Below are positions 12,034-45,700 of a DNA stretch of 64,000 nt, one piece after another. The DNA comes from a virus, in UHGV virus genome UHGV-0057547; one strand, given 5' to 3'. The position numbers and the translations under genes are program-made. Position 1 is the stretch's first letter; every line of letters begins with the position of its first letter. The notes below the pieces were generated by a model, which saw nothing but the letters and a program-made list of their open reading frames with translations, did not search any database and had not been told where the DNA came from.

Positions 12034-15000
12034 GTGAGTGAATTTGATATAAGAATTGGTACGCAACTAGATACTAGTAAAGCGTTACAACAATTGATGG
12101 AATTCGTCAAAAAATATGACAATAAAGAAAAGATAAATATAGACATAGGCCAAACAAAAGGTGCTAATAACATAAAAAACACAACCAAAGCTATGAAAGA
12201 AATGCAAAAGATAGCTAAGGCGTTAGGAAGCACAAAGATTGACATAGGTGGCAATATAGGTAAGGCTACTGGTGAAGCTACTAAATCATTAGAAAATAGT
12301 ATAGACAAACAAGCCAAATCTATTGCCAAAATAACTAGTAATGCACAAAGAGATTTAACTAAAGATGCTCAAAAAGGTATTGGGAATAGTCTTAAAGGTA
12401 TCAATGCAGAAATGAAAGATACCCAAAGAAATGTCGAGAGAATGATTAGTACTCTTGAACGAGCTAAGAAAGTTGAATTAATAGACCAAAAAGGTTTAGA
12501 TGAAGGGTTAGCTAAATTAAAAGATATGAAAGCTAATCTTAATATAGGTAATATTGACAATGTAGAAAAAAAATTAGGGGAAGTAGCAAGTGACTATAAG
12601 AAATTAATGACAGATGCAACTAAGGAAGCATTTAATAATGTTGAAGTATCAGGGTTATTAGAAGACTTAAAAGTTGTCAGAGAAGCTATGTCAGCTAAAA
12701 ACATGGATTTAAGTGGTGTTGATACTTTAATTTCTAAAGCTAAACAACTTACTTCTTTAAGTGTTGACCAAATGTTACAACAGTACAAAGAATTAAGACA
12801 AGTATTTAGTAAAGAATTAAAGATACCATTAGGTTTAAGTGGCATAATGAACGCTGAAACTGCAATTAAAAATGTTCTAGATTATAAAAACAAACTAACT
12901 GCTAAAGTTTCAGTTGAAACAAATTCAGAACAAATAGATATTTTAAAAGATAAAATAATAAGATGTGATGAAGTTGTTGAACAACTTAGAGGAGATTTAA
13001 ACTTAGTAGGTAGAAGTACAGCATTAAATTTAATGGAACAAGCTAATGAAAGAGAATTAGATACATTAAGCGCTAAATTAAAAAAATGTAAAAATGATTA
13101 TGCTAGTTTAGAAAAAGAAAGAGAAAGATTAAATAAAGATAGTAGATACCTTGGAACAGAAGATTTAAACAACATAGAGAAACAATCATTAGCCATAAAG
13201 AAAAACCTTGATAGTTTAAATGTTGGAAATTTAAATACTGATAAAATAAATAAAGTTACTGGTGACATAGATAATTTAAGAAAAACAATAGAATCAACTG
13301 GTAATTCAGCTAAAAAATTAGATATAGAAGCAACAGTTAAAGTAGATATGAAAAATGCTCAAGACCAATTAAATGGTATGTATTCTGCTTTAATAAAATC
13401 TAATAAATCTACCGTAATGGTTAAAAAATATAAAGATGAATTAGAAGGATTATTTGATTTATCTAAGACTAACCCAGGTGTAGCACTAGACAAAATAAGT
13501 GGTTTTATAGAAAAAGTAAATAAAGAAGCCAAGAATAAAGGTTTAGGTAAAATAACTGGTGGTTTAGACCAATACAAACAATACTTAAAAGATTATGAAT
13601 CATTAGTTAAAAAAGCTAGTGGTACTACTGATATTGGTTTTGCAAAAGCTTACAAATCAGAAGTTACACAAATAGAAAAAGCATTAGACCAATTAGAAAG
13701 TGGATTTAACCAAACTCAAAAATCTATGGCTAAATCTTTGAGATTAGAGTCAATTAATAAGAATACTCAAGAATTTATTAATCAAGTTGAGAAATCTATT
13801 AAGAAAACTCAAGAATATAAAAAAGAATTACAAACTCTTAATAATGATATAAATTTTGATGGTCTTACTTCTAAATTAGGTCAAAAAGTCAAAGAAGAAT
13901 TTGACGGAATGATTAATAAAACTAATCAATTAGAAAAAAGACTTGGCAATATGTTATCATCAGGTAACATAAATACTACTGAACTATCTAAGTTAAAATC
14001 AGAACTTGAAAGTACTTTTTCCGGACTTTCTAAACTTAAGGATACTAGTATAAAAATTAAAACTGATGAAACTGTATCAGGACTTAATAAAATCAAAAAA
14101 GATTTAGAAACATTAGGACAAGATACTAGTCAAATAGAAAGAGTTATTAACGCATTAAAAGAACTTAAAGCCAATTTCAATGGTGGTACAGCAGGTTATA
14201 AAGAATTAGCCAATGGAATAAAATCTATTGGAAAAGATAATAACTTAGAAAAACTAAATAGTTCTTTAGAAAAATCAGTTAAGAAATTTAATAACTTAGC
14301 TAAAGCTGTCGGAGAACTAAAGGTTAAAAATATAGGTAATATAGACCAAGGTGCTTTTCAATCTTTAGATAGTCAAGTTGCACGAATACAATCTCATATA
14401 GAAGGTTTAAATAAAAATGATATATCTTTAATAGATGTTAAAAAAGTTGAAGCAGAAGTAAATGAATTAAGCAACTGTGTAGAAAAAATGAGTAGTGAAT
14501 TAACTCAATATAGTAAATATTTGGAAGAATATAAAAGATTATCTAGTCAAGCAGGTAAAACAAATGATGTTAATTTAGCTACAAAATATCAACAAGAAGC
14601 AGAAGGTATAAAAGGTGTATTAACTCAATTAGAAAGTGAGTTTACACAAGCTCAAAAATCTATTGCTCAAGGATTAAAAACTGATGCTTTCTCTAATGCT
14701 AATGAAAAAATGTCTTCTGAAATTAATAAATCAATTAAAACAGTTGATAATCTTAAAGAAAAACTTAATACATTAGATAAAGATGTACATTTTGAAAATA
14801 TGACATCTGAATTAGGTAAAGAATTAAATAGTCAATTTGATACTTTAGCTAATAAAGGTGAAGAATTAAAAGATAAATTAAATAAAATATTAGCATCTGA
14901 TAACGTAGATATTTCTGCTTTAAGTAAAATTAAAAAAGAAATAAGCGAATTTGCAAGTGAAGTTAATAATTTAAAAAATTCTGCAATGGATAATGTTATT

Positions 15001-17166
15001 AGAGAATCTTTTGATAACATTAAAATACCTAATTTAAATAAACAACTAGAAGCCGTTAAAGATTTAATGTCACTTAAAAATATGGACACTAGTGGTATAG
15101 ATACTTTAATAGAAAGAACTAAAAAATTATCAAGTTTAAGCGTAGATAAAATAGGTCAAGAGTTTAAGGAAATACAAAATGCACTTGGTAAAGAAATTAA
15201 TTTACGTTTAGGTTCTAGTGGTATCAAAGATATAGAATCTGCATTAAAAGTTATATTACAATATAGAAATGAATTAAAAAATAAAATAGCAGTTGAAACA
15301 GATTCGTCAAAAGTAAAAGACCTTAATAACCAATTAGAAAAAACTGAGAATATAATAGAAAAGCTTAAAGGTCAAACTAGTGGTGGACTTGGTGCAAGTT
15401 TAATTAGCGATGCTAATAATAATAACTTAAAACAATTAGAAGATACTGCTAATGGATTAGAGAAAACATTCTCTAATTTAGAAAATGAAGTAAATAAATT
15501 AAACAGCGAAGCATTGAATAAGGTTGACATAAGTCAATTAAGGGAAATGAATGAAGTTGTTAATGATGTAAAGAAAAATTTAGCATCTATTGGAGAAGGA
15601 AATGTTAATGTTGATTCAATAAATAAAACAGCACAAGATATAGAAAAATTAAAAAGACTAATAGAAAACACTAAAAAGACAATTAGTGATATGAAATTAG
15701 AAGTTTCATTTAATATTAAATCAAATGAAGCAGAACAATATTTAGCAGGTTTTGAATCAGCTTTATTAAGATTAGGTAAATCAACTAGTGGAATAAATGA
15801 TTTAAAAAGTGAATTTGAAAGTATAAAAAATTCAGCTAACGGAAATTTAAGTAGTGCCATAAAAATGATTGATGACTTTATTAATAAATTAAAACAAATG
15901 GGTAGCAAACAAGGTCTAGGTAATATAAGTGGTACTATATCTCAATATAAACAATATGCTAAAGAATTACAACAAGCTATGAGTGGAGCATTGAAATCTA
16001 GTGGTTCTGATACAGCTAAAGGATTTGAACAACAAGCTGATAGAATAAAAAATGCTATGCAACGTTTAACTTCAAGTTTCAAAGAATCACAAAGAGAATC
16101 GGCTAATGCTTTTAACAGTAGTTCATTTAGTGGTTTTTCTTCTAAATATGAAGCTGAAATAAATAAAGTTGAAAAAAGTATAAACAGATTTAAATCATCA
16201 ATGCAAAATTTAGATAAAGCTGTAAACTTCAAAAGTTTCCAAAGTGATGTAGGTAGAGGTTTATCTGAACAATTTGACCAAATAATGGCGAAAGCCGAAC
16301 AATTAAGAGATAAACTAAAGAGTGCATTATCTTCAGGTACATTTGATATAAGTGAAATAAATAGAATAAAAGATGAATTAAAACAAGTTGAACAAGAAGC
16401 AGATTCATTAAAACAAAAATCTATTGTATTGAAATGTGCCGAAAGTATATCTGAATTAGAAAAGCTTAGTAGTAAACTAAGAGATATAGGTGGAGATACA
16501 TCACAAATAGACAGATTAAGAGATGAATTTGTTTCACTTGGTTCAGGTATAAAAGAGGGTACTGCTGGAATAGATGATGCAATTTCTAAACTGAAATCTT
16601 TATCTTCGGAAGCACAAAGAACTTTTAGTTCTTTTGAATCATCTACTGGTAAAATAGGTTCTTTTGGTTCTAAAATACAAGGTTTCTTTGGTTCTATTAA
16701 GGATTCATTTAGGAATTTTACTATTGGTGAATTAATGGCTGATGGTATAAATCAAGCTGTTTATCAAATAAAAGATACTATATCAGGTTTAGATGAAGCA
16801 ATGTCCGAATTTAAAAGGGTTGCTCCTGATAACTTTAGTTTAAACACATCTAACTTACAAAGTGTTGCTAATGAAGCAAGAGAAATAGGTATTAGTGTTG
16901 GGCAATCAGTAGAAGATGTTATCACTGGAATGAGTACTGCATTACAAGCTGGTGCAGGCGACATTAAAACAGCTTCTGAAATAGCTAAAAGTTCTGCTAT
17001 ATTCCAAAATGTTACAGATATGGATGCAAAAAGTGCCTCAAAAGCTATTTCTTCAATGGTTAACCAATATTATGATATGGATTCAGCATTAAATCAAGTT
17101 GACCACGGTGTAGGTAAATCTGTAAAAGGATACAATAACTTAACTGAAGCGATGGATTTGGTAATT
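12034..17166 (+). CDS. Tape measure protein (TMP), exon 1. The end is uncertain within 17166-17190.
   Basis: GTG start with RBS AAAGAGTGGTGG. Long coiled-coil repeats. TMP core motifs ...GISVGQSVEDVITGMSTALQAGAGDIKTASEIAKSSAIFQ... The stop at 17196 is followed by an HE cassette. Confidence 0.6.
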
Positions 17167-18205
17167 GATTTGCCGTTTATATTAGAAATAATATAAATTA
17201 TTAGAGGGCAAAATCGGTGAAGACTAAATATTTTAATTTATTTACTTTTAATAAAAAATATGGTATAATAATATAAAATAGGAGGGGATATAATGAGAAG
17301 ATTGAGTTATGAATATGTAAAAGAGTATATAGAAAATTTTGGTTATAAATTATTATCAAAAGAATATAAAAACAATAAAACTGAATTAGAAATACAATGT
17401 AATGATTGTGGGAATATATTCCATATGAGATTTAACAATTTTAAAGATGGTAAACATAGATGTGAATGTAAGAGCAAACCATTAGTTTTGACATATGAAT
17501 ATGTTAAAAATTATATTGAATCATGTGGATATAAATTATTATCAAAAGAATATAAAAATAATGCAACCTATTTATTGGTTTGGTGTGGAAATCCTAATCA
17601 CAAACCTTATAAAGTTAAATTTAATAATTTTAAAGATTGTAATAGTAGATGTCCTGAATGTAATACAACTTCAAAAGGTGAAGAAAAAATAAAAGAAATT
17701 CTAATAAAATATAATATAAAATTTAATCAACAATATTTATTTAATGATTGTAGAAATACAAGACCACTTCCATTTGATTTTTATTTACCACAGTATAATA
17801 TTACAATAGAATATGATGGGAGACAACATTATAAATTAGATTGTTTTAATATGAATTTATTAGATTTAATGAATTTGAAATATAATGATAATAAAAAAAC
17901 ACAATATTGCAATAATAATAATATAAAACTTATAAGAATACCATATTGGGATTTTAATAATATAGAAAAAATACTTAAAAAAGAATTAAAAGTAAATTGA
18001 ATAAAGTACAAGTTAATACCGAGATAACTTATTAGATTACGAAAAGGCTAATAAGTATTGTAGAGCATAGAGGATGAATAAATATAACTCCTCCAAGAGT
18101 GTCCTCCATCCTAACGTAAAGACGAGGATGAAAATATATGCCATACTGAATTGGAATAGACCAATTGATGAAAATGAGGGAAACCTCCAGAGCATAAGAT
18201 AAAAA
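17167..18205 (+). mobile_element. Type-B intron-like insertion B1 with a Vsr/DUF559-like endonuclease ORF
   Basis: 5' block TTAGAGGGCAAAATCGGTGAAGACTAA. After the ORF comes AATACCGAG...CCTCC...TAACGTAAAGACGAGG...GAAAATATATGC...AGATAAAAAG. This core is shared with B2 at 19883-20151. Confidence 0.5.
17293..18000 (+). CDS. Intron-encoded zinc-ribbon / Vsr-DUF559-like endonuclease (paralog, 2 modules)
   Basis: RPLPFDFYLPQYNITIEYDGRQHY...IKLIRIPYWDF. Promoter and RBS GGAGGGG lie upstream. Confidence 0.65.
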   Translation: MRRLSYEYVKEYIENFGYKLLSKEYKNNKTELEIQCNDCGNIFHMRFNNFKDGKHRCECKSKPLVLTYEYVKNYIESCGYKLLSKEYKNNATYLLVWCGNPNHKPYKVKFNNFKDCNSRCPECNTTSKGEEKIKEILIKYNIKFNQQYLFNDCRNTRPLPFDFYLPQYNITIEYDGRQHYKLDCFNMNLLDLMNLKYNDNKKTQYCNNNNIKLIRIPYWDFNNIEKILKKELKVN

Positions 18206-18238
18206 GCTTATGGATAATAACAATAGAAATTACGCTGG
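18206..18238 (+). CDS. TMP 33-nt mini-exon (LMDNNNRNYAG)
   Basis: Exactly 11 codons lie between the B1 3' G (AGATAAAAAG|) and the A5 5' splice site GCTGGT|. The putative P1 is CUGGU with AGCCAG, including a U-G pair. Confidence 0.4.
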
Positions 18239-18620
18239 TTAGAATTAGCCAGGCTATATGGAGACATATAGTACAAATCTCTTTTGAATTGCTGGAAAGG
18301 ACTTAGAGCCTATTGAACTACAACGTAGATGGAAACATCAAACGTGAATGTTAAAAAATCAATAGGATTGTTCAATCAGCAGGTAAAATTCTAAGTGATA
18401 ATTTATCATATGAATAAACTTCAACGACTATCCCTTGGATTTGCTAATTTAGTAAATCAATAGGAGTACGGCTCAAGCGATTGGAGTGGGTGAGAATCCC
18501 TTAAATGGAAGTGGAAGAGGACTTATAAAAGTTCAAGATATAGTCTACTCTCGTAGGAAATCTACGAGCAGTCCTTTTTTTGGACGGTATGTATATAGCG
18601 AATACATATGAATATTAAGG
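18239..18620 (+). mobile_element. Group I intron A5, no ORF
   Basis: P2 hairpin CTATATGGAGACATATAG, P AATTGCTGGAAAGG at 18287, Q AATCAGCAGGTAAAATTCTAAG at 18375, R at 18421, S AAGATATAGTCTACTC at 18541. The 3' end is ...ATGAATATTAAGG. Confidence 0.7.
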
Positions 18621-19004
18621 AATAACTTCGCAATTTCATCTGATGGTGTAACAGAAGCATTACAACGTGGTGGTTCTGTATTATCTAACTATGGAGTAGA
18701 TTTAAAAGATTCCATTGCAATGATAACTGGAGCAAATGAATCTTTACAAGACCCTGCTCGTATAGGTAATGGTTTAAAATCTATAGCAATTAACCTTTCA
18801 GGTATTAAAACAAATGCACAAACAGGTGCTCTTGAATTAAATAAAACAGCAAAAGCATTACAAGAAACTGCTAAAATAGATATATTTACTGATAAATCTA
18901 AAACACAAGTTAAAGATATTGTTAGTATACTAGATGAAGTAAAAGATAAATGGGCTTCTTTGACTGATGTTGAACAAAAAGGATTATCAGAAGCCATAGC
19001 AGGT
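18621..19004 (+). CDS. TMP exon 3
   Basis: In-frame NNFAISSDGVTEALQRGGSVLSNYGVDLKDSIAMITGANESLQDPARIGNGLKSIAINLSG..., which is the typical TMP core region. Confidence 0.55.
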
Positions 19005-20151
19005 AGTATGTAAGATTTTGTCTTATTAATTTATTGAATAGACATTATACAAAAATAGTAGTATAATATAAGTAATAAATTAATAAGGAGGGAACTTTCA
19101 TGGGGAAAAGTTCAAAAGATAAATATGAATTAGGTAAAGAAATGTTTTTACAAGGGAAAACAACAATGAATATAGCAAAAGAATTAAATATATCAAGAAG
19201 TAGATTTTCAAGATATTTAAGGGAGTGTGGAATAGATAGTCAACAATATCATAAATTTCCTATAGATGAAAATGTTTTTAATGTAATAGATACAGAAGAA
19301 AAAGCGTACTGGTTAGGATTTTGGTTTGCAGATGGATATGTAAGTTCAAATAGAAATACAGTAGGTATTGATTTAAAACCGAGCGATTTAAATCATCTAA
19401 ATAAATTAAAAACATTTTTAAAATGGAAAGGCGATATAAAAGTAGAAGAAACTAGATGTAGATTAAATTTTAGAAATGATAAAATTAAGAATGATTTAAT
19501 AAAATATGGATGTGTTCCAAATAAATCATTAACGTTAAAATTTCCAAAATCTATAAAAGAAAGTTTTATTCCAGCTTTTATAAGAGGTTATTTTGATGGC
19601 GATGGCTGTTTATGTTACACTGAAAAGACATTAGAAGTAAGCGTAATAAGCACTTATGAATTTCTTGAATCTATATGCGACATAATTAACATTGATAAAA
19701 AAAGAATATATGATTTAAATAAAAATAAAAAAACAAGTCGTATAGTTCTTAGTTCAAAAAAAGATATTAAAAACTTTCTTGAATATATTTATAAAGATGC
19801 TAATATTTACTTAGATAGAAAATATGAAAAATATAAAAATCTTAAAACTGCCGTCTTTGATAGAAATATTAAAGATAATTAGAGGGATGTATCGGTGAAG
19901 CCTAAGTCGAAAGATATGGTAATACCGAGGGTATCTTAACAGAGAATATCCGTAACGCATAGGGAGTGAGCGATATTGTTAGCAATAACCTCCCCACGAG
20001 CTTCCTCCACGATTATATATATAAGAATAATCACTTATAGATGTTGCTACTATAAGTTCTAACGTTAAACGAGAGTGAAAATATATGCTGGACTTATGAG
20101 AAATCATAAGAAGTGGATGTGTGAATTGACACACTATTAATAGATAAAAAG
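19005..20151 (+). mobile_element. Type-B intron-like insertion B2 with a LAGLIDADG ORF
   Basis: The ORF begins right after the 5' junction. The post-ORF core matches B1 (AGAGGGATGTATCGGTGAAG...AATACCGAG...TAACGTTAAACGAGAG...AGATAAAAAG). Confidence 0.5.
19100..19882 (+). CDS. LAGLIDADG homing endonuclease, double-motif
   Basis: The two LAGLIDADG-type motifs are YWLGFWFADGY and IRGYFDGDGC. RBS AAGGAGGG. Confidence 0.75.
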   Translation: MGKSSKDKYELGKEMFLQGKTTMNIAKELNISRSRFSRYLRECGIDSQQYHKFPIDENVFNVIDTEEKAYWLGFWFADGYVSSNRNTVGIDLKPSDLNHLNKLKTFLKWKGDIKVEETRCRLNFRNDKIKNDLIKYGCVPNKSLTLKFPKSIKESFIPAFIRGYFDGDGCLCYTEKTLEVSVISTYEFLESICDIINIDKKRIYDLNKNKKTSRIVLSSKKDIKNFLEYIYKDANIYLDRKYEKYKNLKTAVFDRNIKDN

Positions 20152-20286
20152 CTCCACGATAACAAATCGAAAACTCAAGCCGGTGTATTCCAAGCATTAA
20201 TGACAGGTTGGGAAAGAGTTCGTCAATATCAAAAAGAATACAATGAAGGTTGGATGATAGGTTCAGCTCAAAGAGAGAAACAACAT
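20152..20286 (+). CDS. TMP exon 4
   Basis: Open frame LHDNKSKTQAGVFQALMTGWERVRQYQKEYNEGWMIGSAQREKQH. It ends at a codon boundary on U, before intron sequence TCTCCGTATGTACAG. Confidence 0.4.
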
Positions 20287-20658
20287 TCTCCGTATGTACA
20301 GAAATGTGCATAGGACATAGATTTAATTGCAGGTAATCCCTAAAGCTCTACACCACAATATATCTGAAAAGAATATATGAAGGTACGAAAGTAGAAAAAA
20401 CGTAGAGATTCTCATATGGTTAAATCCTAAGTGAGAGTAACAATGGGTGTTCATGCAGGTAAGATTCTAAGTGATAATTTATCATATGAATAAACTTCAA
20501 CGACTAGAATGCAAATTCGTAGGGTGTAAGCGATTGACACTCGAAAAGGTCTACCCTTAATATTAAGGTGAAGAAATAGTCTACTCTTATAGGAAACTAT
20601 AAGCAGTTTTCATATAAAGAAAACGGATTAAGTGTAGCGAACTTAATTGAATAAATGG
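20287..20658 (+). mobile_element. Group I intron A6, no ORF
   Basis: P variant AATTGCAGGTAATCCC at 20327, Q GTTCATGCAGGTAAGATTCTAAG at 20460, R at 20497, S GAAGAAATAGTCTACTC. The 3' end is GTGTAGCGAACTTAATTGAATAAATGG. Confidence 0.65.
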
Positions 20659-23600
20659 AATGAAATCTATATGGATTCCATTGCTGGTAAATTTAATACT
20701 TTAAAAGAAAATCTTAAAGGAATATTAACTAGCAATGTTACAACAGATATGTTTAAAGGACTATTAGATGGTGCTAATAAAGTAGTAGAAGCAGTAGGAA
20801 AAATAAGTTCAAGCTTAGGTAAAATTGGTTCTGCTGGTGCATTAGTAGGTATTTCATCTTTTGTAAAAACTTTATCAAATTTAGATAAAGCTAAAACAAT
20901 AGGTGGTGGTTTTACAGGATTTGATAACCTATTAGAAGTAATACAAGGTACTGCTGTTACTTCTTCCGGTGAAATAAAAACACTAGGCGATAGTTTTAAA
21001 GAATTAGGTGTTAAGACAACTCTATCTAAAGTAGCATTAGGATTATTTAAAGGTGTATTAATGGGTATTGCATTTACTGCTGTTGTTAAAGGAATAGATG
21101 CTATGGTAAAAGCATGGGACAATTATATTCATGCAACAGAAAATGCAGTAAAGGCTTCTAAAGAAAGACAAGATGGATATAGAGACGAAGCACAAACATT
21201 AAGTACTAAAAAATCAAGTCTACAAGAAATAGCTAAAGAATATGATAATTTAAATAATAAATCTGATAAAACTGCTGAAGATTTAACTAGATTAAATGAA
21301 TTAAAACAACAAATAGGACAAATAGCTCCTGACCTTGTTAAAGGATATGATTCAGCAGGTAATCCAATATTAAATCTTACTACTAGTATGCAAGGTTATA
21401 TAGCTGAATTAGATAAAGCAATCGCTAAACAACGAGAACTATATAATTATGAAACTAAAAAACAAGCACGAGAATATATGAAGAAAAATGACACTAAAAA
21501 TGGTGCTCAAGACCCTGAAAGAAATTCTTATGAAACTGAATTAAATCATCTTCAAAATGCAAATGATAGAAAAACTAGAGAAGAAAAAAGATATACTGGT
21601 AGTTTAAAAAATATTATTAAAGATAGAAATAAATATAGAGAAGACCAAGAAAAAAGTATTAATGATAGATTAGAAAGAATTAGAAATGCACAAACAGAAG
21701 TTAATAATAGAGATACTACAATTGAAGATAATTATGTTAACGAATTTAATAAGAAAACTAAATTAGCCGAAAAAGAACAAAATAAATTTGCTACTTTTAT
21801 GAAAGGACTAAATTGGGGTACTTATGGTGAAGCAGAAGCCAATAGAATGGCTAAAGGTTTACAAACATTATCTGAAAAAACTGCGTTTACAACTCAAGAA
21901 ATGACAAAAGGATTATCAGGTAGTATGTCAAAAAAAGTTTCAGCAGAAATTGCTAAAGTAAATGCAGAATTCAAAAAGACAAATGCCATAAACGAATGGG
22001 GAAAAAATTTAAGAAATATAGCTAATGAAACAGGAAAATTTGATTTTTCAAATTGGAGTAATTACTTATCAGAAGTTCAAACTCGTTTTGAACAAGGAGT
22101 AAGTACTAATGAACAATATACACATTCATTAGGAATCATGGCTGATGCTATGGAAGATTTAACTGGTATAGATTCAGATGTATTCTTACCAGCTTTAAAA
22201 GGTGGAGCAGATTTAGAAGAAGCCTTTAAATCAGCAACTGAAGGTTTAAATGGTTTTATGAGTGCTTATGGTTCTTCTACTGCAAAATTACAACAAGGCG
22301 ATTCATTTGCTAAAAAGTTAGAGTCTCAATTTAAAGAACTTGAAAATTTTGAAACTGAATTTGAAGGTCAATATGAGATGGAAGGTAAAGTTAGGGTAGA
22401 CTGGTTAATAGAACAAAAAGATAATAAAGATTTACCTAAACAATTAAGAACTATAATAGATGCGGTAACAAAAGACAATGAAGTAACAGAAGTAGAAGAA
22501 AAATTAGTATTAGCCTGTGAAACAGAAATAAAAGATAAAGGTAAGTTGGAACAAAGTACAATAGATGCAATAAATCAAGTAATGGACGGAACATGGGATG
22601 TAAATAAAACTATTGAAATAGGTGGTATGGAATTTACATCATCTGAAATAAAAGAATTAATGTCATTAGCTGACCAATTAGGTATATCTTTAGAAGGCTT
22701 AAATATTGGTGATACAGGATTAGATGGAGAAGCTCAAAAAGCTCAAGCATTAAAAGATGCAATAGATTCAATCTCAGATAGAGAAATAAAAGTAGCAATA
22801 GAGGCTGAAGGATTTGAAAATTCCGACCAAGTTAACAATATAATGTCAGTTGTTGACCAAATAGATGGAAGACAAGCTAAAGTTGATTTTATAGCAGATG
22901 CTTCTCAATACTTTATGGAAAATGATAGTGTTGAATCAGCAATAGAAGCTATGCCTGATGAAATAAAACTTAAATATAATATTGGGGTTGAAGGTGATGA
23001 AAGACTAGAAGGAATACAAAGTAGACTTGAAAAATTACCAAAAGATATTAGAACTATGGTATATGCTCAAACATATGGTGTAGAAAATGTTGAAATGCTA
23101 GAAAAAATGGTAGATACTTTTGGTGGAAAAACTGCAACAGCAATATTACAAATAGAAGGTATACAAGATTCTCTTAAAAATGCTACTACATTTGAGGAAC
23201 AATTAAAAATAATTGGAGACTATGTATGTAAACCTGGAGTAGAAATAGAAGGTAAAGATAAAATACTTGACACAATTGATAGCATATTAAAGAAATTAAA
23301 AGAAACAGATGGTAAAGAAGGTAAAGCTAAAGTAGAAGTAGAAGGAGATACTTCAGGAGCTGAGAAAGTAGAGAAAAAAGTAGAAGAAGTAGATGGTAAG
23401 GAAGGTAAAGCTAAGGCAAAAGTTGATGGAGATACTTCAGGAGCAGATAAAGTAGAGAAAAAAGTTGATGAAGTGGACGGCAAGGAAGGGACTGCTAAAG
23501 TAAAAGTAGATGCTGATACTTCTGAAGCTGAAAAAGCTAAAAAAGAAGTAGACAATTTAGCTGTTAATAAAAATGGTACAGTTACTTTATTAGTAAATGG

Positions 23601-26600
23601 TCAAGAAAAAATAGCAGAAGCCAAAATCAATAAAGGTCAATTAGAAGTAGATGGTAAAGCAGTTACGACTATTTCTGTTAATGGTAAAGACCAATTGCCA
23701 GTTGCTATTAATGAAAAAGGTCAATTAGAAGTAAATGGTCAAGCTATAACTAATGTTAATGTTAATGGTAAAGACCAATTAACTTTGGCTAGAAATGAAA
23801 AAGGGCAATTAGAAGTAAATGGTAAAGCTATAACTAATATCGATGTAACAGGAAAAGAAAAAGTTTCTGATGCAAAAAAAGAAGTTGACGATTTAACTAA
23901 AGATAATAAAAATGTTAGTATTAATATTGATGTCTCATTAAAAGAAACTGTTGGTGAAATATTATCAAGATTTGGACTAAATAAGAAAACAGAAAATGTT
24001 GAAATTAACGTATCATGTAATGATAATGCAACTCCAGTATTAGAAAAAATAATGTCAAGACAAGATAAAACTATACATATAACAGTAGATTGTACAGACC
24101 ATGCAACTTCTAAAATAAACAATATAACTAAAATCGGAAATAAAACTGTAACAGTTACAATAAATTGTCAAGATAATGCTACTCCTAAAATAAATAGTGT
24201 GGCTAAGTTAGGAAATAAATCTGTAACAGTTACAATAAATTGTCAAGATAACGCAAGTTCTACGATAAACAGGGTTACAAGCGCACCTTCTTCTAAGTCA
24301 ATAAATGTTGTAGTAACTTGTTCAAATGGAGGAGCAGTTCTTAATACTCTTTCACAATTGGCTAGTAAAGTAATACCTAGCAAAAAATTTACTATAACTT
24401 GTGCAGATAGTGCTAGTAGTGTAGTAAGTAGAGTTAATGGTTTAAGAATATCTGATAAGAGATTTAAAATAGATTGTACAGATAATGCAACTGCTAAAGT
24501 AAATAGAGTTATTAGTAAAAAAATACCAAATAAATCATTTACTATAAGTTGTAACGATAACGCTAGTGGTAAGTTAAGCAGTATTATAAGCAAAATAAGT
24601 AATATCCATAGTAAATCAGTAACAATTACTACTAATCATGTAAGTAAAGGTGAAAAATCATCTGTTGGCGAACCAACAATTGTTGATTTACAACCTCAAC
24701 CATTTGGTAGTGCTCAAGCTTCTAATCCTCAAGTACAATCATTAGGCGAACAAGTTCAAGTATTAAGTGATAGTGTACAACAACAAACTGACAATAATAA
24801 TGAAGTTAGTGTAATGGCTAAGAAAACATATAAAGCCAATATTGATACTGGTTTAACAGTAAGTGCAGTTAAATATAATATTGATTTATTAACTAACATG
24901 AATAATCTACTTAAAAAATTAGGAACTCAAGTTGATATATTAAAAGCTAAACAAGAAAGAACTTGGGGTAATGCAAGTGCTAAATTACTTAGAAGTCAAA
25001 TTGCTTTACTAACTAAACAACAAAGTTTAACTAAAGTAAATATTAAGAACATGGAAGGCATGGCTAAAAAACTTAAGGGTAGTTTACAAAAACAAGGATT
25101 TAAGTTTAAAGATGATGGAACAATAAGTAATTACAATAGTAAACTTGTTAAAATGCAAAAAACTGTTGAAAGTTTAGAAAAAGCCGAAAAAGCATTAGAA
25201 GACCAAATAGATAAAACTGAGAAACAAATTTCAAAATCTGAAAAGAAATCTTCAAGCAAGAAAAAATCAACTAGTAAAAAGAAATCTTCAAGTAAGAAAA
25301 AGAGTACAAGCAAAAAGAAGAAAACTTCAAGTAAGAAAAAATCAACTAAGAAAAAGAGCACTACTAAGAAGAAATCAACTAGTAAGAAAAAGAGCTCTAG
25401 TAAGAGCAATAGAAAGACTACATCAAGTAAAGCTAGTAAAAAGAAAACTACTAAGAAGAAAAAATCAACTAGCAAGAAAAAGAGTACATCAACTAAGAAG
25501 AAAAGTACTAAGAAAAGCACTACTAAAAAGAAATCGACTAAGAAGAAGAGTACTAAGAAAAGCACTAAGAAGACAAGCACTAAATCAAAAGCAACTAAAG
25601 CATTAGAAAGTAAGAAGAGTGGATTAGAAAAGAAAAAAGATGCAATAAGCAAAAAATTAGAAAAAGCACAAAAAGAATTATCAGAAACTCAAAGCAAATT
25701 AAATGAATATTATAATCTACAATTTAGCGAAATTCCTGAAGCTCAACAACAATGGGAAGAATATGCTAATGCTATTGCAGAAGCTAAGGCAGAAATAATT
25801 AGATGTGAATTAGAAGCTAAAACATTCTTCAAGACAATTAAAATGGAAATGAAGGATGCTATGATTAGCAGAAATGAAACTTGGGCAGATACATTTATGT
25901 TAAAAGCTGATTTAAGTAGTTGGTCTAAGGCAGTAGGATACATTAAAGAAGCTAATAAATTATTAGAAAAAAATCAAAAACATCAACAATCAAAATTAGA
26001 AACTGCACAAGATAGAGCAAATGATAATAAAGCATTCTTAAAGAAACAAGGATTTAAATTTGATAAAAATGGATATGTAACAGGTGCTGAAAAAACTTTA
26101 GAAAAAATAAAAAAATCTAAATCTACTCAAGAATATGATGCTATAAAAGAAGCATTTGACCAATATGTTGAAGATATGTATGAAAACATTCCTAAAGCTG
26201 AAAATGAATGGTGGAAATTAGAACAAGAAATAAAGGAAAATGAAAGACAAATAAAAGAAACCACTAAGGCTATGAATGACTTAGTTAATTCAGCTAAGGT
26301 AGATAAATTAACTAGACAATTCGATGTACTTTCAAATAGTTTAGATATATTAGACCTTAAAATGGAACGTGCTTATGGAGCTAATAAAATAGACTATATG
26401 CAACAACAACTTGATATATTGACTAGTATGAAGAATAAGAATCAAGAAATTATTAATCAAAATACTGAGTTGTTAAATGATAGTAAGAAACAATTAGCTC
26501 AATATGGTATTACATTTGATGAAGATGGCAATATAGATAATTTATCAAGTGCATTGAAAAAATTAGATAATTTACAAGACATGGAAGATTTACAAGACTT

Positions 26601-27270
26601 AGTTGATGAATATAATGATTATAAAGATTCAATAGATGATGCTAGTAAATCAATTGAAGAAGAAACTAATAAACAACTTGAATTAAAAGATTCAATGATG
26701 GAAATTAGAGAAGAAATGAGAAAACTTAGAGATGATGCGTGGGTTAAAACTTATGAAAATGGTCTAAAAGTTATTCAAAATCGTATTGATACAATAGATT
26801 CTTTATTAGATTTGGAAGATGAAAATCAATTTGGTTTACTAAATCAAAAAATTGAAGAATATAAGAATTTAACTAAGGCAACTGAAGATAGTTTAGCTTA
26901 TCAAAAACATAGAAAAGTTACTATGCAAAAAACATTAATTGATTACGGATTCACTATTAATGATGATGGTACAATAGATGGAACTGCTAATAAATTAGAA
27001 CAACTTAAAAATACATTATCTGAAACTGAATTTGGTATAGTAAGTGATACATTAGAAGATTATTTTGATACTGCTTTAGATACAATTCCTGAATTAGAAA
27101 GAGAATTAATAAAATATCAAAAAGATTTAAAAGATATACAAAATACTAAACTAGAAAAAACTAAAACTATTGAAGAAAAAATTACAGAAATATATAATGA
27201 TGAAATAGATAAAAGAACTAAAAAGATACAAGAAGAAGCAGAAGCACAAACTAAAGCACTAAATAAGGCT
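20659..27270 (+). CDS. TMP exon 5, about 2,204 aa. It carries internal tandem repeats and a K/S/T-rich tract.
   Basis: In frame from the intron's 3' G. Sequence NEIYMDSIAGKF... The ORF-track TTG start at 20647 lies inside the intron's 3' end. Confidence 0.55.
23290..23560 (+). repeat. Three tandem coding repeats in the TMP of about 60 nt each
   Basis: The repeated peptide is (V/A)EGDTSGAEKVEKKV(E/D)EVDGKEGKAK. Confidence 0.6.
24090..24620 (+). repeat. About eight tandem coding repeats in the TMP
   Basis: The repeat is ...TVTINCQDNATPKIN.V.K.GNKS... with degenerate copies. Confidence 0.55.
25240..25610 (+). repeat. Low-complexity K/S/T-rich coding tract in the TMP
   Basis: KKSSSKKKSTSKKKSSSKKK... 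runs for about 120 aa. Confidence 0.6.
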
Positions 27271-27498
27271 AAATTTAGCCTGGTTGTCGAGTAATCGGCT
27301 TCAAAAATAATAGATTTAATTGCAGGTAATTCCTAAAGCCTTACACCACAAGCACAGAGAAATCATGTGTTGAAGGTACGAAAGTAGAAAAAACGTAAGG
27401 ATGGATATAAGGTTAAATCCTAAGTATCCAAACATATTTATATATGTTAAAATGGATGTTCATGCAGGTAAGATTCTAAATTAAATTATTTTAAATAT

Positions 27499-27541
27499 TT
27501 GACTTTTAATAAGATAAATTGTATAATATAAGTAAAGAGAG
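27499..27541 (+). promoter_or_regulatory. Sigma70-like promoter and RBS driving the intron-encoded HNH ORF
   Basis: TTGACT-17 nt-TATAAT with the TGTATAAT extended form, then AGAGAGGTGG as RBS. Confidence 0.5.
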
Positions 27542-28444
27542 GTGGAATATATGGGTCAAAAATTGAATAGAAAAAAAATAGAAAAATATATAAATCAATA
27601 TAATTATGAAGTTTTATATTGTAAACATGATAAAAATAAATATAAATGGAAACTCATTTTAATGTGCCCTAATTTTCATATTTTCAAAATGGATTTTGAT
27701 AAATTTCAAAATAATAGAAGATGCCCTTGTTGTAATGGTTCTAAGTATAATGAAGATTTTGTTAGAGAATATATGTTAAATAATGGAGATATACTTTTAT
27801 CTCATTATCATAATGGAAATGAAAAATTAAAAGTAATGTGTAAATATGGTCATATTTTTTATCCAATATTTAATAATTACTATAATAAAAATTCAAGATG
27901 TCCATATTGTAATGGGAATATAACTATGGAGCATAAAAGTTTTATTAATAGATTAAATACAATTAACCCTAACATAGAAATATTGGGTGAATATAAAAAT
28001 AGTCATACTAAAATTAAATGTAAGTGTAAAATAGATGGGCATGAATGGGAGGCAAAGCCTACTAATCTATTAGGAAGTAAAAATGCAAAACCAACTGGAT
28101 GTCCAAAGTGTTATAGACGAACTTATCGAGGTGAAACACATCCTTTATTTGACCATAGTAAAACAAAAGAAGATAGAGAAGATGATAGAAGTTATTTTGA
28201 ATATAATGAATGGAGAACTAAATGTTTTGAGAGAGATAAATATACTTGTCAAGTTACCGGACAACAAGGTGGAAGATTAGTAGTACATCATTTATATTCT
28301 TATAATAAATATTATTGTTTAAGAACGACATTGGAAAATGGTATAACAATATCAGAAGAAATACATAAAAAATTCCATTCTATTTATGGAAATGGAAATA
28401 ATACATTCGAACAATGGGAAGAATTTATTAAAAGTTTAAAATAA
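27542..28444 (+). CDS. Intron-encoded HNH endonuclease with N-terminal zinc-ribbon modules
   Basis: The zinc-ribbon modules resemble those of the Vsr-like family. The C-terminus carries CQVTGQQGGRLVVHHLYSYNKYYCLRTTLENGITISEEIHKKFH. Confidence 0.65.
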   Translation: MEYMGQKLNRKKIEKYINQYNYEVLYCKHDKNKYKWKLILMCPNFHIFKMDFDKFQNNRRCPCCNGSKYNEDFVREYMLNNGDILLSHYHNGNEKLKVMCKYGHIFYPIFNNYYNKNSRCPYCNGNITMEHKSFINRLNTINPNIEILGEYKNSHTKIKCKCKIDGHEWEAKPTNLLGSKNAKPTGCPKCYRRTYRGETHPLFDHSKTKEDREDDRSYFEYNEWRTKCFERDKYTCQVTGQQGGRLVVHHLYSYNKYYCLRTTLENGITISEEIHKKFHSIYGNGNNTFEQWEEFIKSLK

Positions 28445-28642
28445 TTTAACATGAATAAACTTCAACGACTATCCCTTGGATTTACTAATTTAGTAAATCA
28501 ATAGGAGTACGGCTCAAGTGATTGGAGTGGGTGAAATCCCCTTAAATGGAAAAGGTCTACTCCTACAATTGTAGGATGAAGAAATAGTCTTGACACGTTT
28601 TGAAAGAAAGTGCTTAGAATTAACTAAGGTTTATAAAATGCG

Positions 28643-29006
28643 ATTATAAATAAAATTTTTCGTAAAGAAGCTTATCAAAGATGGAGAGACGATGTTGACT
28701 ATAAAGATGATTATAACAAACAATTAAAAACTGTTGAAGATTTACAAAAGAAAATAGAAATAGCGAAACGTGATGATAGTTTAACTGGACAAAAACGTTT
28801 AGCAGATTTGATGAAAGAATTAAAAGAAGAACAAGAAAATCTTGAAGATATGGTTCAAGACAAAATTAACAGTGACGTGAATAATATGTTTGATGACCAA
28901 ATAGACAAAATAGAAGAAAATTCTGATGAAGAAGTTAAGAATTTGGAAAAAACATGGTCAGAAAGCAAAATAGCTGAAATGGTTAAACAAGCACTTGATA
29001 CTGGAG
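28643..29006 (+). CDS. TMP exon 6
   Basis: IINKIFRKEAYQRWRDDVDYKDD...KQALDTG. The frame is continuous with exon 5 when the intron ends at the G of ATGCG. Confidence 0.45.
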
Positions 29007-29217
29007 TAAATTAGCTCCTTTTACTAAGTAATTAGTATTAAAACTCATTGAATTGCTGGAACTTCCTAAAGCTAACTAAACTACAATATGGCTAGAAATG
29101 GCGAATATGAATGTGGCGAAAGCAGAAAAAATTAGTTAGATATTCATATGGTTAAATCCTAAGTGAATATAAATGGATAATCAGCAGGTAAGTGCCTAAA
29201 TTTATTTTATAAAATAA

Positions 29218-29268
29218 TTGACTTTTAATAAGATAAAACGTATAATATAAGTAAAGAAAGGGGTTGAG
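29218..29268 (+). promoter_or_regulatory. Sigma70-like promoter and RBS driving an intron-encoded endonuclease
   Basis: TTGACTTTTAATAAGATAAAACGTATAATATAAGTAAAGAAAGGGG is nearly identical to the cassette at 27499. Confidence 0.5.
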
Positions 29269-30360
29269 ATGATGAAAAAACATGATTATAAATTTATTAA
29301 AGAATATGTTGAAAGTTTTGGATATAAATTATTATCAACAGAATATAAAAATGCTAATACTAAATTAAAAATAGAATGTCAAGAAGGACATATGTTTGAA
29401 AGAACATTTAGTAAGTTTAAACAAACTCAAAATTGTCCATATTGCACTAATACTAGAAAATGGAATATTTTAGAAATAAAAGAGTATTTAAAAAACATAG
29501 GTTATACATTATTAAGTACAGAGTATAAAAATAATCAAACCAAATTAGATATGATTTGTTCAGAGGGACATAAAATACAAATGACTTTAGGAAATATCCA
29601 ACAAGGTAAAAGATGTCATATATGTTCAAGAAAAACAGCTTCAGAAAAAAGAAAACATGATTATGAATTCGTTAAGCAATATATTGAAAATGAAGGTTAT
29701 AAATTATTATCCAAAACATATATAAATCAAGATGAAAAATTAAAAATAAGATGTTCGAAAGGTCATATATTTTTAATGAGTTTTTGTAAATTTAAACAAG
29801 GTCAAAGATGTCCTCAATGTTGTAAAAATAAAAAAATGTCTCATAAAGAATTTTTAGAAAAATTCTATAATCAAAATTACAATACTGAAAATATAGAAAT
29901 ATTGAGTGAATATATAAATGCTAAGACGAAAATAAAATGTAAATGTCTAAAAGACGGTTGTATTTGGTATGTTATACCTAATAGTTTACTAAACGGAACT
30001 GGTTGTCCTCAATGTAACGAATCTAAAGGAGAAAAAAGAGTTGCTAAATATTTAGATAGTAGAAATATAGAATATGAAAGACAATATAAATTTAATGATT
30101 GTAAAAGTAACAAAGAGTTACCTTTTGATTTTTATATACATAGTTTAAATATAGCTATAGAATATGATGGTGGACAACATTATATGATAGTAAACCATTT
30201 TGGAGGACTTAATGGATTTATAACTACTAAAATACATGACACTATAAAAACACAATATTGCAAAAATAACAATATTCGTTTAATAAGAATACCATATTGG
30301 GATTTTGATAATATAGAAAATATACTAAGTCAATTATTAAATATAAATATGAATAAATAA
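29269..30360 (+). CDS. Intron-encoded zinc-ribbon / Vsr-DUF559-like endonuclease (paralog, 4 modules)
   Basis: ELPFDFYIHSLNIAIEYDGGQHY...IRLIRIPYWDF. Confidence 0.7.
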   Translation: MMKKHDYKFIKEYVESFGYKLLSTEYKNANTKLKIECQEGHMFERTFSKFKQTQNCPYCTNTRKWNILEIKEYLKNIGYTLLSTEYKNNQTKLDMICSEGHKIQMTLGNIQQGKRCHICSRKTASEKRKHDYEFVKQYIENEGYKLLSKTYINQDEKLKIRCSKGHIFLMSFCKFKQGQRCPQCCKNKKMSHKEFLEKFYNQNYNTENIEILSEYINAKTKIKCKCLKDGCIWYVIPNSLLNGTGCPQCNESKGEKRVAKYLDSRNIEYERQYKFNDCKSNKELPFDFYIHSLNIAIEYDGGQHYMIVNHFGGLNGFITTKIHDTIKTQYCKNNNIRLIRIPYWDFDNIENILSQLLNINMNK

Positions 30361-30508
30361 GGCAAAACTTCAACGACTATATATACTAGTAGTCTAGTTA
30401 GTGGTGAGCATCCTTATGGGATGATGATATAGTCTACTCTCATGTGAAAGCATGAGCAGTTCATAAGAGAACGGTATAAGGTTTAACGAACTTTATATGA
30501 ATATTAAG

Positions 30509-30910
30509 GTGTTTACAGATATTGATGGAAATATCAAAACTCTTCAAACAGCATTAATGGATTTTGCTAATACAAGTTCTGATTATTTTGGAGTTATGGG
30601 TGATTCATTAAAGAAAGAATTGTTAAATAATCTTAATGTAGCATTAGAGACTATGAAAGAACTTCAAAAAATGTCAGATAATTATACTGCTCCTAATATA
30701 GATTATAGCAATACAGTACTTCCAAAAGATAGTGGTATTAATACTTCTCCACAAGTTTCTAGTAATGTTGAAACTAATAATATTACAATTGGAGATACTA
30801 ATATTACAATTCAAGGTGGTGCAGATGATGTTACTTTAGGAAAAGTAGATGAAATGTTAAAAGATTACAAAGCAAGCATTTGTAAGGAAATTGTTAAAAA
30901 TATGAAATAA
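30509..30910 (+). CDS. TMP terminal exon
   Basis: VFTDIDGNIKTLQTALMDF... The ORF-track ATG at 30497 is intronic sequence ATGAATATTAAG. Confidence 0.45.
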   Translation: MFTDIDGNIKTLQTALMDFANTSSDYFGVMGDSLKKELLNNLNVALETMKELQKMSDNYTAPNIDYSNTVLPKDSGINTSPQVSSNVETNNITIGDTNITIQGGADDVTLGKVDEMLKDYKASICKEIVKNMK

Positions 30911-42711: not shown

Positions 42712-45700
42712 ATGGCAAATACAATAAATTCTACTAATAATCTCACATCCACAAAAATACCTGAATTATATATTAGATATTTCAATCCTAAACAAAAAAT
42801 TAATGAAACGATAAGTATTAAATATTATGTATCTGATAGTACTCAAGCTGAGTATTTAAATAAAGATGATAGTAAAAGTTTTACAACTATTGTTAAAATA
42901 AATGATAAGTCATATTCTAAAACCACTAAAGCAGGAGAATATTCAATAGATATAGGTTCAATTGCTATTACTGGAGAAACTTACTTTAGCATTCAAACCA
43001 TAGATGACAATGGTGTAGCGAGTATTGAACAATTTTTTGATATACTAATAGTTAATGATACATATAATCAAGTAAATAATTATAATATGACAACTGCTGA
43101 TTTATCTACATATAATATTACTGTTGGTGAAACTGCTAGTATATCACAAGCTAAAACAAATAATACAGGATTGAACAACTTGTTTAAAGCAGTTAAAAAT
43201 AATGGTCATAATAAGATTACTATGCTAAATAAAATTTATATGTTAGATTATCATTCTGATAAAGTAGTTTTACCTGACCATTTCACAGTAGATATGAATG
43301 GTGCTACATTTAAGGCAACACAATGTAATGACATTAATGTATCAAATCTAGTAGACTTAAGAGATTGCTTTGATTCTCATGTTAAAAATGGTAAATTAAT
43401 TGGTAACTATGATGGATTTGATTTTGAAGCAACGAAAACTAATACAAATTATAACATACCTGGTGAAGGTCTTGCAGTTGCTGAAATCAATGGTGCAAGA
43501 TATTCATCTTTTGAAGATATGGAAATGGGATATTCAGTTGGTTACAATTTAGGTGTATTTGGAGGTAAATTAGCAGGATATGTAGGAACTCCTGGTCAAT
43601 TAGCCTTCCCAAATGCATATTATATAAATGACCAAGGCAACACAGTTAGTAGTACTACTATGAGTACAACAGAATTAATTGATATTTCAACATTGTTAGA
43701 TAGAGGTGAAATACAATGTAATGTGTATTTAGGATATGGAGGATTGGCTTTAAACAAAGCAGAATTGTTTTTTCATTTTTATGATAGTCATTCTGCATAT
43801 AAAACAACAATAAAAACAAGACAGTATCAAGTAGTTAAAATACCAAGTGGTTCAAAATCTATGAGAATTACTAGTTTCACTTCAACTACAACATCATCAG
43901 GTATGACAATATGCCATACAGGTGGGGCTACAAATTGTGAACTAATTAATGTGAAATCACATAATACAAGAACATGTGCTATGCATCCTGGTATATACAA
44001 TCATTTGTTAATAAAGAATTGTTCATTCAACTATGTTGCTGATGAAAATGAATATAAAGTAACAAAGTTAGCTTTGGATTTTGAAGATGGATATGAGAAC
44101 GGTAAAAATTTATTTTTCATAAACAATGAAGTTTATAATGGAACATCTGCTTTGACAATCCAAAGAGGTTTCAATTGTAATGTTATTAATTGTAGAAATT
44201 TTGGATTAGACTTAAGAGGACATATAAAAGGAGCAAATATTAAAAATAATTTCTTCAATGATGGAAGTATTTATACTACTAATTTTGACTCTCAATCACA
44301 TTTAAAATTGGACAATAATACATTCTTTAAAATATTGAAATTCTTAAAATGGGATAATACTGGAAATTATTCTACTGTTGGATTAACTAAATTAGATTGT
44401 AAACAAAGTTATCAAAATAACTCTAATATCAATGTAATAATTGATAAAGCGGTTGAAAGTGGTGGTAGTGGAGGAGGAACTACTCCTGAAACATTAACTA
44501 TAAGTAATATATCAAACATAACACAATCAGAAAAAACAGAATTCTATATTGAATATTCCACAAATATAGCAGTAGTAAAACATGAAGTTTCATGGGATGG
44601 AGGAAATACATTCTACGATAAAACAAGTGATGTTGTAGTAAACGGAACATCATATAAATTTAAACATGATAATAAAGGTAATGCTGGAACTTATCAAATG
44701 GCTATAAGGGTAACAACAGCTAAAGGTACTACTAAGACAAGTAATGTATTTACTGTTACTTTAGTAGATAATAATCAATTAGCTTTCACTCAATACAAAC
44801 GACTTAATGAGGGTGTAATTACAGATACAACAGATGGTACATATTATAGTACATTAAATTATATAAGTGTAACTGCTGGTAAATCATATACTATCAATCT
44901 TAATAAAGCTAATTATGTATGTGTTTGTTATTACAATTCATCAAATTCTTATGTATCCTATGTCGAAGGCAATACAGATGACTGGTCAAATAAAGCTTTG
45001 TCATATACGTTTACTGTACCAGCAAATATAGCTAAAATATTAATATGTGCTACTGGTGATGCAAGTACTGCTATCACAGCTACATTAAAAGAAAATGGTT
45101 CAAGTTCAAGCTCATTACTAGATTCTACTGGTGCTTATGTAATAGATGATTTCTCAGGTAATAGTGTAGACTCAAATAAATGGGGATATGAATTGGGTTA
45201 TGTTAGAAATAATGAAACTCAAAGATATACAAACACTAATGCTGAAATCAACGATGGTATATTAGCATTAAGAGGTAAAAAAGCAAGTGATGGTTCTTGG
45301 ACATCAGCATCAATTATCTCTAAAGGTCATTTTGCTTTTATGTATGGTAAAATAGTAGCAAGAGTTAGACCATGTAATTGGAATGGTTCTTTTGGTGCAT
45401 TTTGGACTTTAGGAGACAGTTTTGAATTTGGATATAAAGAAAATGGTAGTCCTGATACATTAGGTGAATGGTGGGCTTATTGTGGTGAATTTGATGTAAT
45501 GGAATTTTACAATGGTAAACTAACTTGTGGTACGTTCTTTAATGAAAAAGAAGAAAGTGGTCGTGTATGGTATAATAATTATCCTACTGGTGATTGGCAT
45601 GAGTTTGCTATGGAATGGAATACAGATGGTAGTTTAGTTTTCTCTATTGATGGAAATGAATTAAGCAGAACAAGTGCTACTGATAACAGAGCATTCCATA

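Follow-up and report, generated by a model that had tools for sequence, protein, structure and literature searches.

Exon targets, internal guides and mosaic copies in a group I intron family of an AT-rich phage

In the late-gene region of an uncultivated AT-rich phage, a tape-measure-like gene and a metallophosphoesterase gene are interrupted by group I introns, A8 and A10, that follow almost the same ten exon nucleotides. This raises the question of how related introns came to occupy different genes. A sequence-only reading had proposed ectopic homing to near-identical exon targets, together with recombination between intron copies. After comparison with related phages, the observation was partly confirmed and its interpretation partly supported: spread to new sites and recombination between copies were upheld and near-identical targets were not. 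The account that we consider probable is that a single intron family spread by guide-compatible insertion, with native targets, tuning of the exons and mosaic exchange between copies.

The intron family and its host genes

The window, which is the whole stretch of 64,000 nt that was analysed, has a G+C content of about 28%, and its long ORFs all lie on the + strand. Direct-repeat analysis and motif searches revealed a group I intron family of 13 paralogous copies in these 64 kb, all on the + strand (Table 1). Profiles of the two intron halves, searched with nhmmer, found exactly 13 5' domains and 12 3' domains, again all on the + strand, A13 being cut by the window end. The gathering score of Rfam Intron_gpI (RF00028) was reached by A11 (98.4 bits), A9 (95.4 bits) and A12 (53.4 bits), and also by the form of A8 without an endonuclease gene found in relative L009 (82.1 bits). 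The 3' half of A10 scored just 30.2 bits, and the other copies were assigned to the family by nhmmer homology to both domains. The group I core was present, with an R element (ACTTCAACGACTA) in 12 copies and an S element (GAWATAGTC) in 12, in matching order. A boundary ending in a terminal G (omega-G) was possible at every site having an intron-less comparator. For self-splicing with exon ligation the indications are indirect: the reading frames would be restored at all sites, and the predicted spliced products match intron-less homologues. An ORF is carried by six copies (A2, A3, A5, A7, A8 and A10).

For comparison, megablast of 12 kb of the window found no close relative among GenBank phages. 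In IMG/VR, five contigs of 147-198 kb and additional fragments were found; their exons match the window at 93-99% identity, and their intron content differs. Among these close relatives, intron-less alleles were available for eight sites (A2, A3, A4, A6, A7, A9, A12 and A13), and boundaries were fixed at the DNA level by comparison with such alleles; the A3 junction, for example, was fixed by L023 and L024. The A10 and A11 sites were intron-less in more distant metagenome contigs, and the A8 site in L014, a relative with 40% amino-acid identity. No intron-less A8 allele was found among the close relatives, and A1 and A5 were likewise without one. No match to an intron-less A10 or A8 junction came from exact-pattern scans of IMG/VR, and none to the A3/A4 host protein from tblastn against phages.

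Several other features of the host genes were observed. If all its exons are joined, the tape-measure-like protein, which at least five introns interrupt, is about 4,400 aa long; the phage would then have an unusually long tail, or the protein would combine several functions by fusion. Within the same frame, an 18-nt periodic repeat (repeat family D1) encodes a Lys/Ser/Thr-rich low-complexity stretch. A separate intron-like insertion with a LAGLIDADG ORF, outside the 13-copy family and with no Rfam match, is absent in L013, where the flanks are joined as GCTGGA/AAAACCCAAGCC. The CotH gene holds a divergent group I-like insertion with an R-like AACAACGACTAAG and an S-like GCAATAGTCTG element near 62290-62340. 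It is shorter in relatives, with about 140 nt in its place in L016 and no second ORF in L020 and L021.

Table 1. Positions of host genes, introns, flanks, endonuclease genes and other features in the window. 5' boundaries (exon/intron) are given with omega-G kept; tuning gives the intron-less, then the intron-bearing, exon codons.
Feature	Position	Strand	5' boundary	Remarks
Tape-measure-like frame (TMP), very long	12034-30910	+
Repeat family D1	25196-25550
Metallophosphoesterase gene	53756-58548	+		Homologous to phage G gp352 and crAss-like phage phosphatases
CotH-domain protein	start 58562	+
Intron A1	629-1033	+		Exon GGAG, guide CUCC; 3' end set by homology with site-Z intron of L013
Intron A2	3268-4601	+	GGGG/U (3267/3268)	Endonuclease ORF 3517-4443; absent in L023, L026; tuning AGA GGT to AGG GGC
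Intron A3	8784-10127	+	GGAG/U (8783/8784)	Guide CUCC; P2 identical to that of A10; endonuclease ORF 9022-9948; absent in L023, L024
Intron A4	10180-10557	+		Absent in L024
Intron A5	17163-18619	+		Boundaries +/-2 nt (no intron-less allele); endonuclease ORF 17293-18000; R-to-P8 segment 18418-18477
Intron A6	20278-20658	+	GAGAG/A (20277/20278)	Earlier placed at 20287; absent in L009-L011, L013; tuning GAA to GAG
Intron A7	27270-28662	+	GGC/U (27269/27270)	HNH-type endonuclease ORF 27542-28444; R-to-P8 segment 28459-28518; absent in L009, L010, L012, L013, L015; tuning AAA GCC to AAG GCT; nearest neighbours: P1-P2 A12, P3-P4 A12, P5 extension A13, R-P8 A11, tail A4
5' exon flank of A8	28997-29006	+		GATACTGGAG, tape-measure gene; codons D-T-G and G of Val
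P1 of A8	29003-29018	+		GGAG/U AAAUUA G CUCC; exon GGAG pairs with CUCC, first intron U with G
Intron A8 (TMP)	29007-30509	+		Guide CUCC behind exon GGAG; omega-G at 30509
Endonuclease ORF of A8	29269-30360	+		In P6 loop; zinc-finger repeats and Vsr/I-Bth0305I-like nuclease domain (predicted)
Intron A9	55139-55463	+		Rfam 95 bits; canonical U.G at 5' splice site; absent in L004, L006, L007; tuning ACT GAC to ACG GAT
5' exon flank of A10	55578-55587	+		AATACTGGAG; conserved N-T-G-D motif II of the metallophosphoesterase
Intron A10	55588-56748	+	GGAG/U (55587/55588)	GGAG/UAAC...UUAGG/ACAUU; guide CUCC; junction fixed by intron-less L027/L029 and phage G homologue; nearest neighbours: P1-P2 A3, P3-P5 A1, R-P8 A9, S-P9 A11, tail A8
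Endonuclease ORF of A10	55844-56590	+		Missing from A10 in each of the five close relatives
Intron A11	56847-57161	+		Rfam 98 bits; R-to-P8 segment related to those of A5 and A7
Intron A12	57564-57936	+		5' half 87% identical to A7, P3-P4 100%; absent in L003-L005
Intron A13 (CotH-like gene)	63730-64000	+	GGAGG/A (63729/63730)	Cut by window end; guide CCUC behind exon GAGG; earlier placed at 63739; absent in L016, L019; tuning GAA TGG CGT to GAG TGG AGG
P6-loop endonuclease genes, window	e.g. 29200-30365, 55790-56600			A2, A3, A7, A8, A10
P6-loop endonuclease genes, relatives				A1 in L024; A11 in L004; A12 in L006-L008; X in L009/L012
Site X	28789/28790		UGGG/U	Empty in window, occupied by family member in relatives (L009-L012); guide CCC(U) behind exon (U)GGG; tuning GGA to GGG
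Site Y	10164/10165		GGAA/U	Empty in window, occupied in L023/L024
Site V	17143/17144		GAGG/U	Empty in window, occupied in L013; guide CCUC; tuning GAA to GAG
Site Z	18741/18742			Empty in window, occupied in relatives (L013)
Site W	~30602			Empty in window, family member in relatives; guide CCC(U) behind exon (U)GGG
Site A0	upstream of window start			Occupied in L023-L025; exon GGAG, guide CUCC
Site in L028			GCAG/A
Intron-like insertion in TMP	19004-20169			LAGLIDADG ORF 19100-19882
Insertion in CotH gene	61283-63270			ORFs 61422-62279 (zinc fingers and Vsr-like domain) and 62449-63201

Exon flanks at A8/A10 and A6/A13

The resemblance around A8 and A10 was re-examined. The two 5' flanks that had been quoted were present and match at nine of ten positions; four of the matching bases are the GGAG half of P1. 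After each flank, the introns begin with TAA(A/C)...GCTCC as had been noted, except that A8 continues as GCTCCT rather than GCTCCC. The 3' exons had also been described as similar, but TGTTTACAGA and ACATTTCACA match at five of ten positions, which is chance level. Compared with random coding positions, the 9/10 match is an outlier (P = 0.013 for a maximum of at least nine among 12 sites). Conditional on the shared GGAG, a match at five or more of the six upstream bases has a probability of 0.018 for a single pair; the window has four GGAG-class sites, and over the six pairs that they form the probability rises to 0.10. Gapped local alignment of the 40-nt reconstituted sites, for which the null was built from spaced positions with repeat masking, was not significant for A8/A10 (P = 0.66). 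Beyond GGAG, the additional likeness is weak. The shared codon phase of the GGAG-class sites was considered as a further signal and rejected, 93 of the 118 coding GGAG words (79%) being in the GGA/G phase.

Each flank consists of codons native to its gene, (D/N)-T-G. Splicing of A10 would give AATACTGGAG/ACATT, which encodes the conserved N-T-G-D-I motif, and this 15-mer occurs without interruption in L027 as well as in phage G gp352 (34% protein identity). For A8, the spliced product DTG/VFTDIDG matches STGVFEDIDG of the intron-less L014, where the DNA reads ACAGGAG/TATTT. The intron-less targets would have been GATACTGGAG/TGTTTACAG in the tape-measure gene and AATACTGGAG/ACATTTCAC in the phosphatase gene. 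The third-position T behind the 9/10 match is polymorphic in relatives (GAC ACT, AAC ACT). Unoccupied copies of these flanks also exist: AATACTGGAG at 48565-48574, on the + strand of a tail-gene ORF, and GACACTGGAGTAAA at 46777-46790, and the degenerate word RATACTGGAG occurs four times in the window. One ORF (42712-49074) contains both unoccupied flanks, the former as AATACTGGAGTGG; both are candidates for future insertion.

One explanation for such a shared flank is exon co-conversion, in which ATACTGGAG arrived with the intron from a donor gene and overwrote the recipient exon. Synonymous changes adjoining the junction in the intron-bearing alleles of A2, A6, A7, A9, A13, X and V speak for it. 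However, the intron-less L027 and L029 and phage G carry the same AATACTGGAGACATT at the A10 site, within the conserved NTGD motif, and L014 already has ACAGGAG/T at the A8 site without an intron; overwriting by a donor exon is accordingly judged most unlikely. On the sequence comparison, the A8/A10 likeness is GGAG, a Thr codon and two more bases native to both genes. A sequence preference, of an endonuclease or otherwise, may have made a modest contribution to the five of six bases shared beyond GGAG.

For A6 and A13, a common exon flank, AG(A/G)GRAAACAAYAT, and a common intron start, TCYYCGTATGTASAGAAAT, had been reported. Both sequences are indeed common to the two introns, but the boundary had been placed 9 nt too far 3' and the exon similarity did not survive its correction. 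The intron-less alleles place the A6 boundary at ...AAAGAGAG/AAACAACAT... (L009-L011 and L013) and that of A13 at ...GTGGAGG/AAACAATAT... (L016 and L019). Because the boundary lies 9 nt upstream, most of the claimed exon similarity is intron; AAACAAYAT belongs to the P1 loop region. The true 5' flanks, TCAAAGAGAG and AGAGTGGAGG, match at three of ten positions and the 3' flanks at five of ten.

Guide pairing, exon tuning and the 5' splice site

Immediately before P2 lie four intron nucleotides, the internal guide, with which the final four nucleotides of the exon pair. A P1 mini-alignment was assembled by hand from the 11 sites with a boundary from DNA or protein comparison, with three pieces from each: exon positions -4 to -1, the base that opens the intron, and the 5 nt preceding P2. 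With the P2 start uncertain by 1-2 nt in some introns, 90.9% of the cells were paired compared with 61.8% in shuffles, and none of 500 shuffles was as high. Compensatory changes were seen at all five pairs, and the register was unique, with pairing collapsing on sliding. The guides could be grouped by the exon word they face, CUCC being found at four sites in the window and at A0 in relatives (Table 1). These comparisons support a choice of site that tracks the 4-nt guide, with the similarity between sites ending at the four guide-paired exon nucleotides. The proposal of near-identical exon targets was not supported, since the resemblance is mostly the four bases with which each intron pairs and the A6/A13 case arose from a boundary error.

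At seven of the 12 sites, the intron-bearing allele differs synonymously from the intron-less one in a direction that raises guide pairing, and at none is pairing lowered (Table 1). The A3, A10 and Y targets were fully complementary to the guide before insertion. In the 3' exon of A9, three synonymous differences fall within the first 12 nt, a tract of the kind left by homing.

The U.G pair at the group I 5' splice site has been described as 'completely conserved' and is used as a filter by a recent intron database (PMC11835236), while engineering of the Anabaena intron found a pyrimidine alone to be tolerated at that position (PMC12355055). In the present family, DNA and protein comparison, rather than RNA, was used to locate the last exon position, and with omega-G kept it is not U at most sites. 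It is G at A2, A3, A6, A10, A13, X, V and the L028 site, C at A7 and A at Y; U stands there at A9, A12 and Z alone, with A5 and A11 as probable further cases. No boundary that leaves U at the end of the exon yields the product observed in the intron-less sequence or conserved protein for any of A3, A6, A10, A13, X, Y and V. Canonical boundaries (U at -1 plus omega-G) were tried for every intron and rejected where they produced a frameshift, a stop or the loss of an invariant residue; the canonical boundary of A10 would change D to V in the GD motif.

In many copies, the U.G pair is found one position inside the intron, and the position of the cut is constant relative to P2. The P1-P2 modules of A7 and A12 are nearly identical, yet the same guide position forms C-G in one and U-A in the other. 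On these boundaries, most introns of the family would be without the canonical U where the 5' exon ends, which needs confirmation from RNA. A bolder reading, to which we give slightly less than even credence, is that position and not the U.G pair defines the 5' splice site, the cut following the fourth base pair above P2, and that these phages record guide-directed ectopic transposition of the reverse-splicing type.

Site occupancy, mosaic copies and routes to new sites

Across the close relatives, at least 20 distinct family sites were found with presence/absence polymorphism; the relatives are closely related, so that these sites are not fully independent. Spread to new sites, as first proposed, was borne out: relatives with exons 93-99% identical to the window lack A2, A3, A4, A6, A7, A9, A12 or A13, and family members occur in relatives at X, Y, V, Z and W, all of which are empty in the window. 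Relatives have at site X an A6-like core (89-93% identity across 337 nt), and the A6 site is empty in the same relatives. The flank of X (TTAACTGGG/CAAAAACG) and its P1-P2 module both differ from those of A6. In L028, an intron lies 27 nt downstream of the empty A10 site.

These data were also weighed against coincidence, that is, old, vertically inherited introns whose flanks are alike by chance in an AT-rich, codon-biased genome. The non-significant gapped alignment, the prevailing GGA/G phase and the fourfold occurrence of RATACTGGAG would fit it. Against it, exons and guides pair and covary at every site to a degree beyond chance; phages that share 93-99% identity do not have the same sites occupied; and near-identical cores stand at different sites (A6 and X). 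We consider coincidence very unlikely.

Recombination between copies, the other part of the original proposal, was supported by identity matrices, in which the nearest neighbour shifts segment by segment along every intron (see A7 and A10 in Table 1). The 5' sequence reported to be shared by A7 and A12 comprises 73 nt with two mismatches, and their whole 5' halves have the identity given in Table 1. The 60-nt R-to-P8 segment was found in A5 and A7, with one mismatch rather than the claimed complete identity, and its related copy in A11 carries a deletion.

To characterise the encoded proteins, the five ORFs of A2, A3, A5, A8 and A10 were aligned. They have two to five N-terminal treble-clef zinc-finger repeats followed by a C-terminal nuclease domain, with an invariant E-Y-D-G-x-Q-H; the A7 ORF has an HNH-type C-terminus. 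Searches against PDB by sequence, single or profile, returned nothing significant, and matches to Pfam DUF559 and PvuRts1I_N fell below their cut-offs. An AlphaFold2 model of the nuclease domain (pLDDT 79, pTM 0.72) gave as its best Foldseek match PDB 3r3p_B, with a modest E-value of 5.6e-3 (prob 1.00, TM 0.56/0.65), followed by AbaSI, PvuRts1I and Vsr. From the model, a Vsr/I-Bth0305I-like fold is predicted. PDB 3R3P is I-Bth0305I, the EDxHD homing endonuclease of Bacillus phage 0305phi8-36. Besides being the best fold match, that enzyme is likewise encoded in a phage group I intron; it differs in sequence (20% identity, no significant match), in its motif (E-D-x-H-D compared with IEYDGxQH here) and at the N-terminus, which in the present enzymes consists of zinc-finger repeats.

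Wherever present, the endonuclease gene occupies the same P6-loop position, and its presence is polymorphic for each intron among near-identical phages. This pattern suggests transfer of endonuclease genes from one intron copy to another, a process that could drive mosaic gene conversion. Hypothetically, the endonucleases might cleave paralogous introns without the gene, with inter-copy repair following as a possible driver of the mosaicism.

These data bear on the original explanation, in which an intron-encoded endonuclease, loose in its specificity, cleaved a similar-looking target in another gene (between tape-measure and phosphatase in either direction, or tape-measure to CotH) and the intron was copied in. 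The 9/10 flank match, the endonuclease ORFs held by both A8 and A10 in the window and the identity of their 3' parts (96-97%) agree with it. However, endonuclease targets normally span both exons, and the A8/A10 3' flanks match at five of ten, with P = 0.10 for the 5' side beyond GGAG. The two endonucleases share only 41% amino-acid identity, that of A10 being closer to the one in A5, and the gene is absent from A10 in five of five relatives and from A8 in four of five. Neither are the P1-P2 modules sisters, with 67% identity between A8 and A10 and 85% between A10 and its nearest copy, A3. The same 10-mer stands unoccupied at 48565, and the A6/A13 support disappeared with the boundary correction. 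Endonuclease-driven jumping between look-alike exon targets is thus poorly supported, is unneeded and appears improbable.

In contrast, related introns at different sites, each with an exon complement to its guide, are what was found and what a reverse-splicing model expects. In the favoured account of guide-compatible insertion, new sites would be reached wherever the 4-nt guide pairs; judged from sequence, the route would be integration of the reverse-splicing type, or illegitimate insertion followed by selection for splicing. After insertion, synonymous exon changes would improve pairing, so that exon and guide co-adapt. At occupied sites, the endonucleases would drive homing, and the introns would behave as ordinary mobile elements, with presence/absence polymorphism, co-conversion-like synonymous tracts and an optional P6-loop endonuclease gene. 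Copies would swap segments by recombination or gene conversion, yielding mosaic introns.

Phage group I introns with loop-encoded homing endonucleases include those of T4 td, nrdB and sunY, SPO1 DNA polymerase, and Twort orf142 and nrdE. Like them, the present introns reside in phage protein-coding genes, have the Intron_gpI core with R and S elements and omega-G, hold an optional endonuclease ORF in a peripheral loop, and vary in presence or absence together with differences in flanking markers, which is the pattern of homing; Twort likewise offers a case of several related introns within a single gene. Here, however, there are 13 members in 64 kb, all in late structural genes (a single phosphatase gene has four of them and the tape-measure gene several), segment exchange between copies is pervasive, and in most cases a nucleotide other than U precedes the inferred 5' splice site. 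Phage introns of this kind have been reviewed (PMC3984707). For nuclear group I introns at different rDNA positions, spread by reverse splicing has been proposed (PMC1299323; PMC3984707). The circumstantial case for ectopic integration is of the same kind here: related introns at different sites, the sole shared requirement being a 4-6-nt complement to the P1 guide. The differences are that the targets are protein-coding phage genes and not rRNA, that the time scale is short (sites differ between genomes 93-99% identical), that synonymous exon sites appear to adjust to the guide, and that endonuclease genes are also present.

If RNA confirms splice sites without U, a textbook rule changes, which matters for annotation pipelines that filter on U and for engineered group I systems. 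If the positional rule is true, changes at four guide nucleotides would serve any exon 4-mer, which would explain the colonisation of at least 20 sites. The way in which group I introns arrive at new sites is a recognised puzzle; according to a review, transposition by reverse splicing has no direct evidence, the best circumstantial case being rDNA (PMC3984707). The present phages offer a dense natural data set, in which a single family occupies no fewer than 20 sites in protein-coding genes, alleles with and without the intron occur in genomes of 93-99% identity, guide classes track 4-nt exon words, synonymous changes tune pairing, and copies are mosaic. The question is therefore testable by crosses, cleavage assays and splicing assays.
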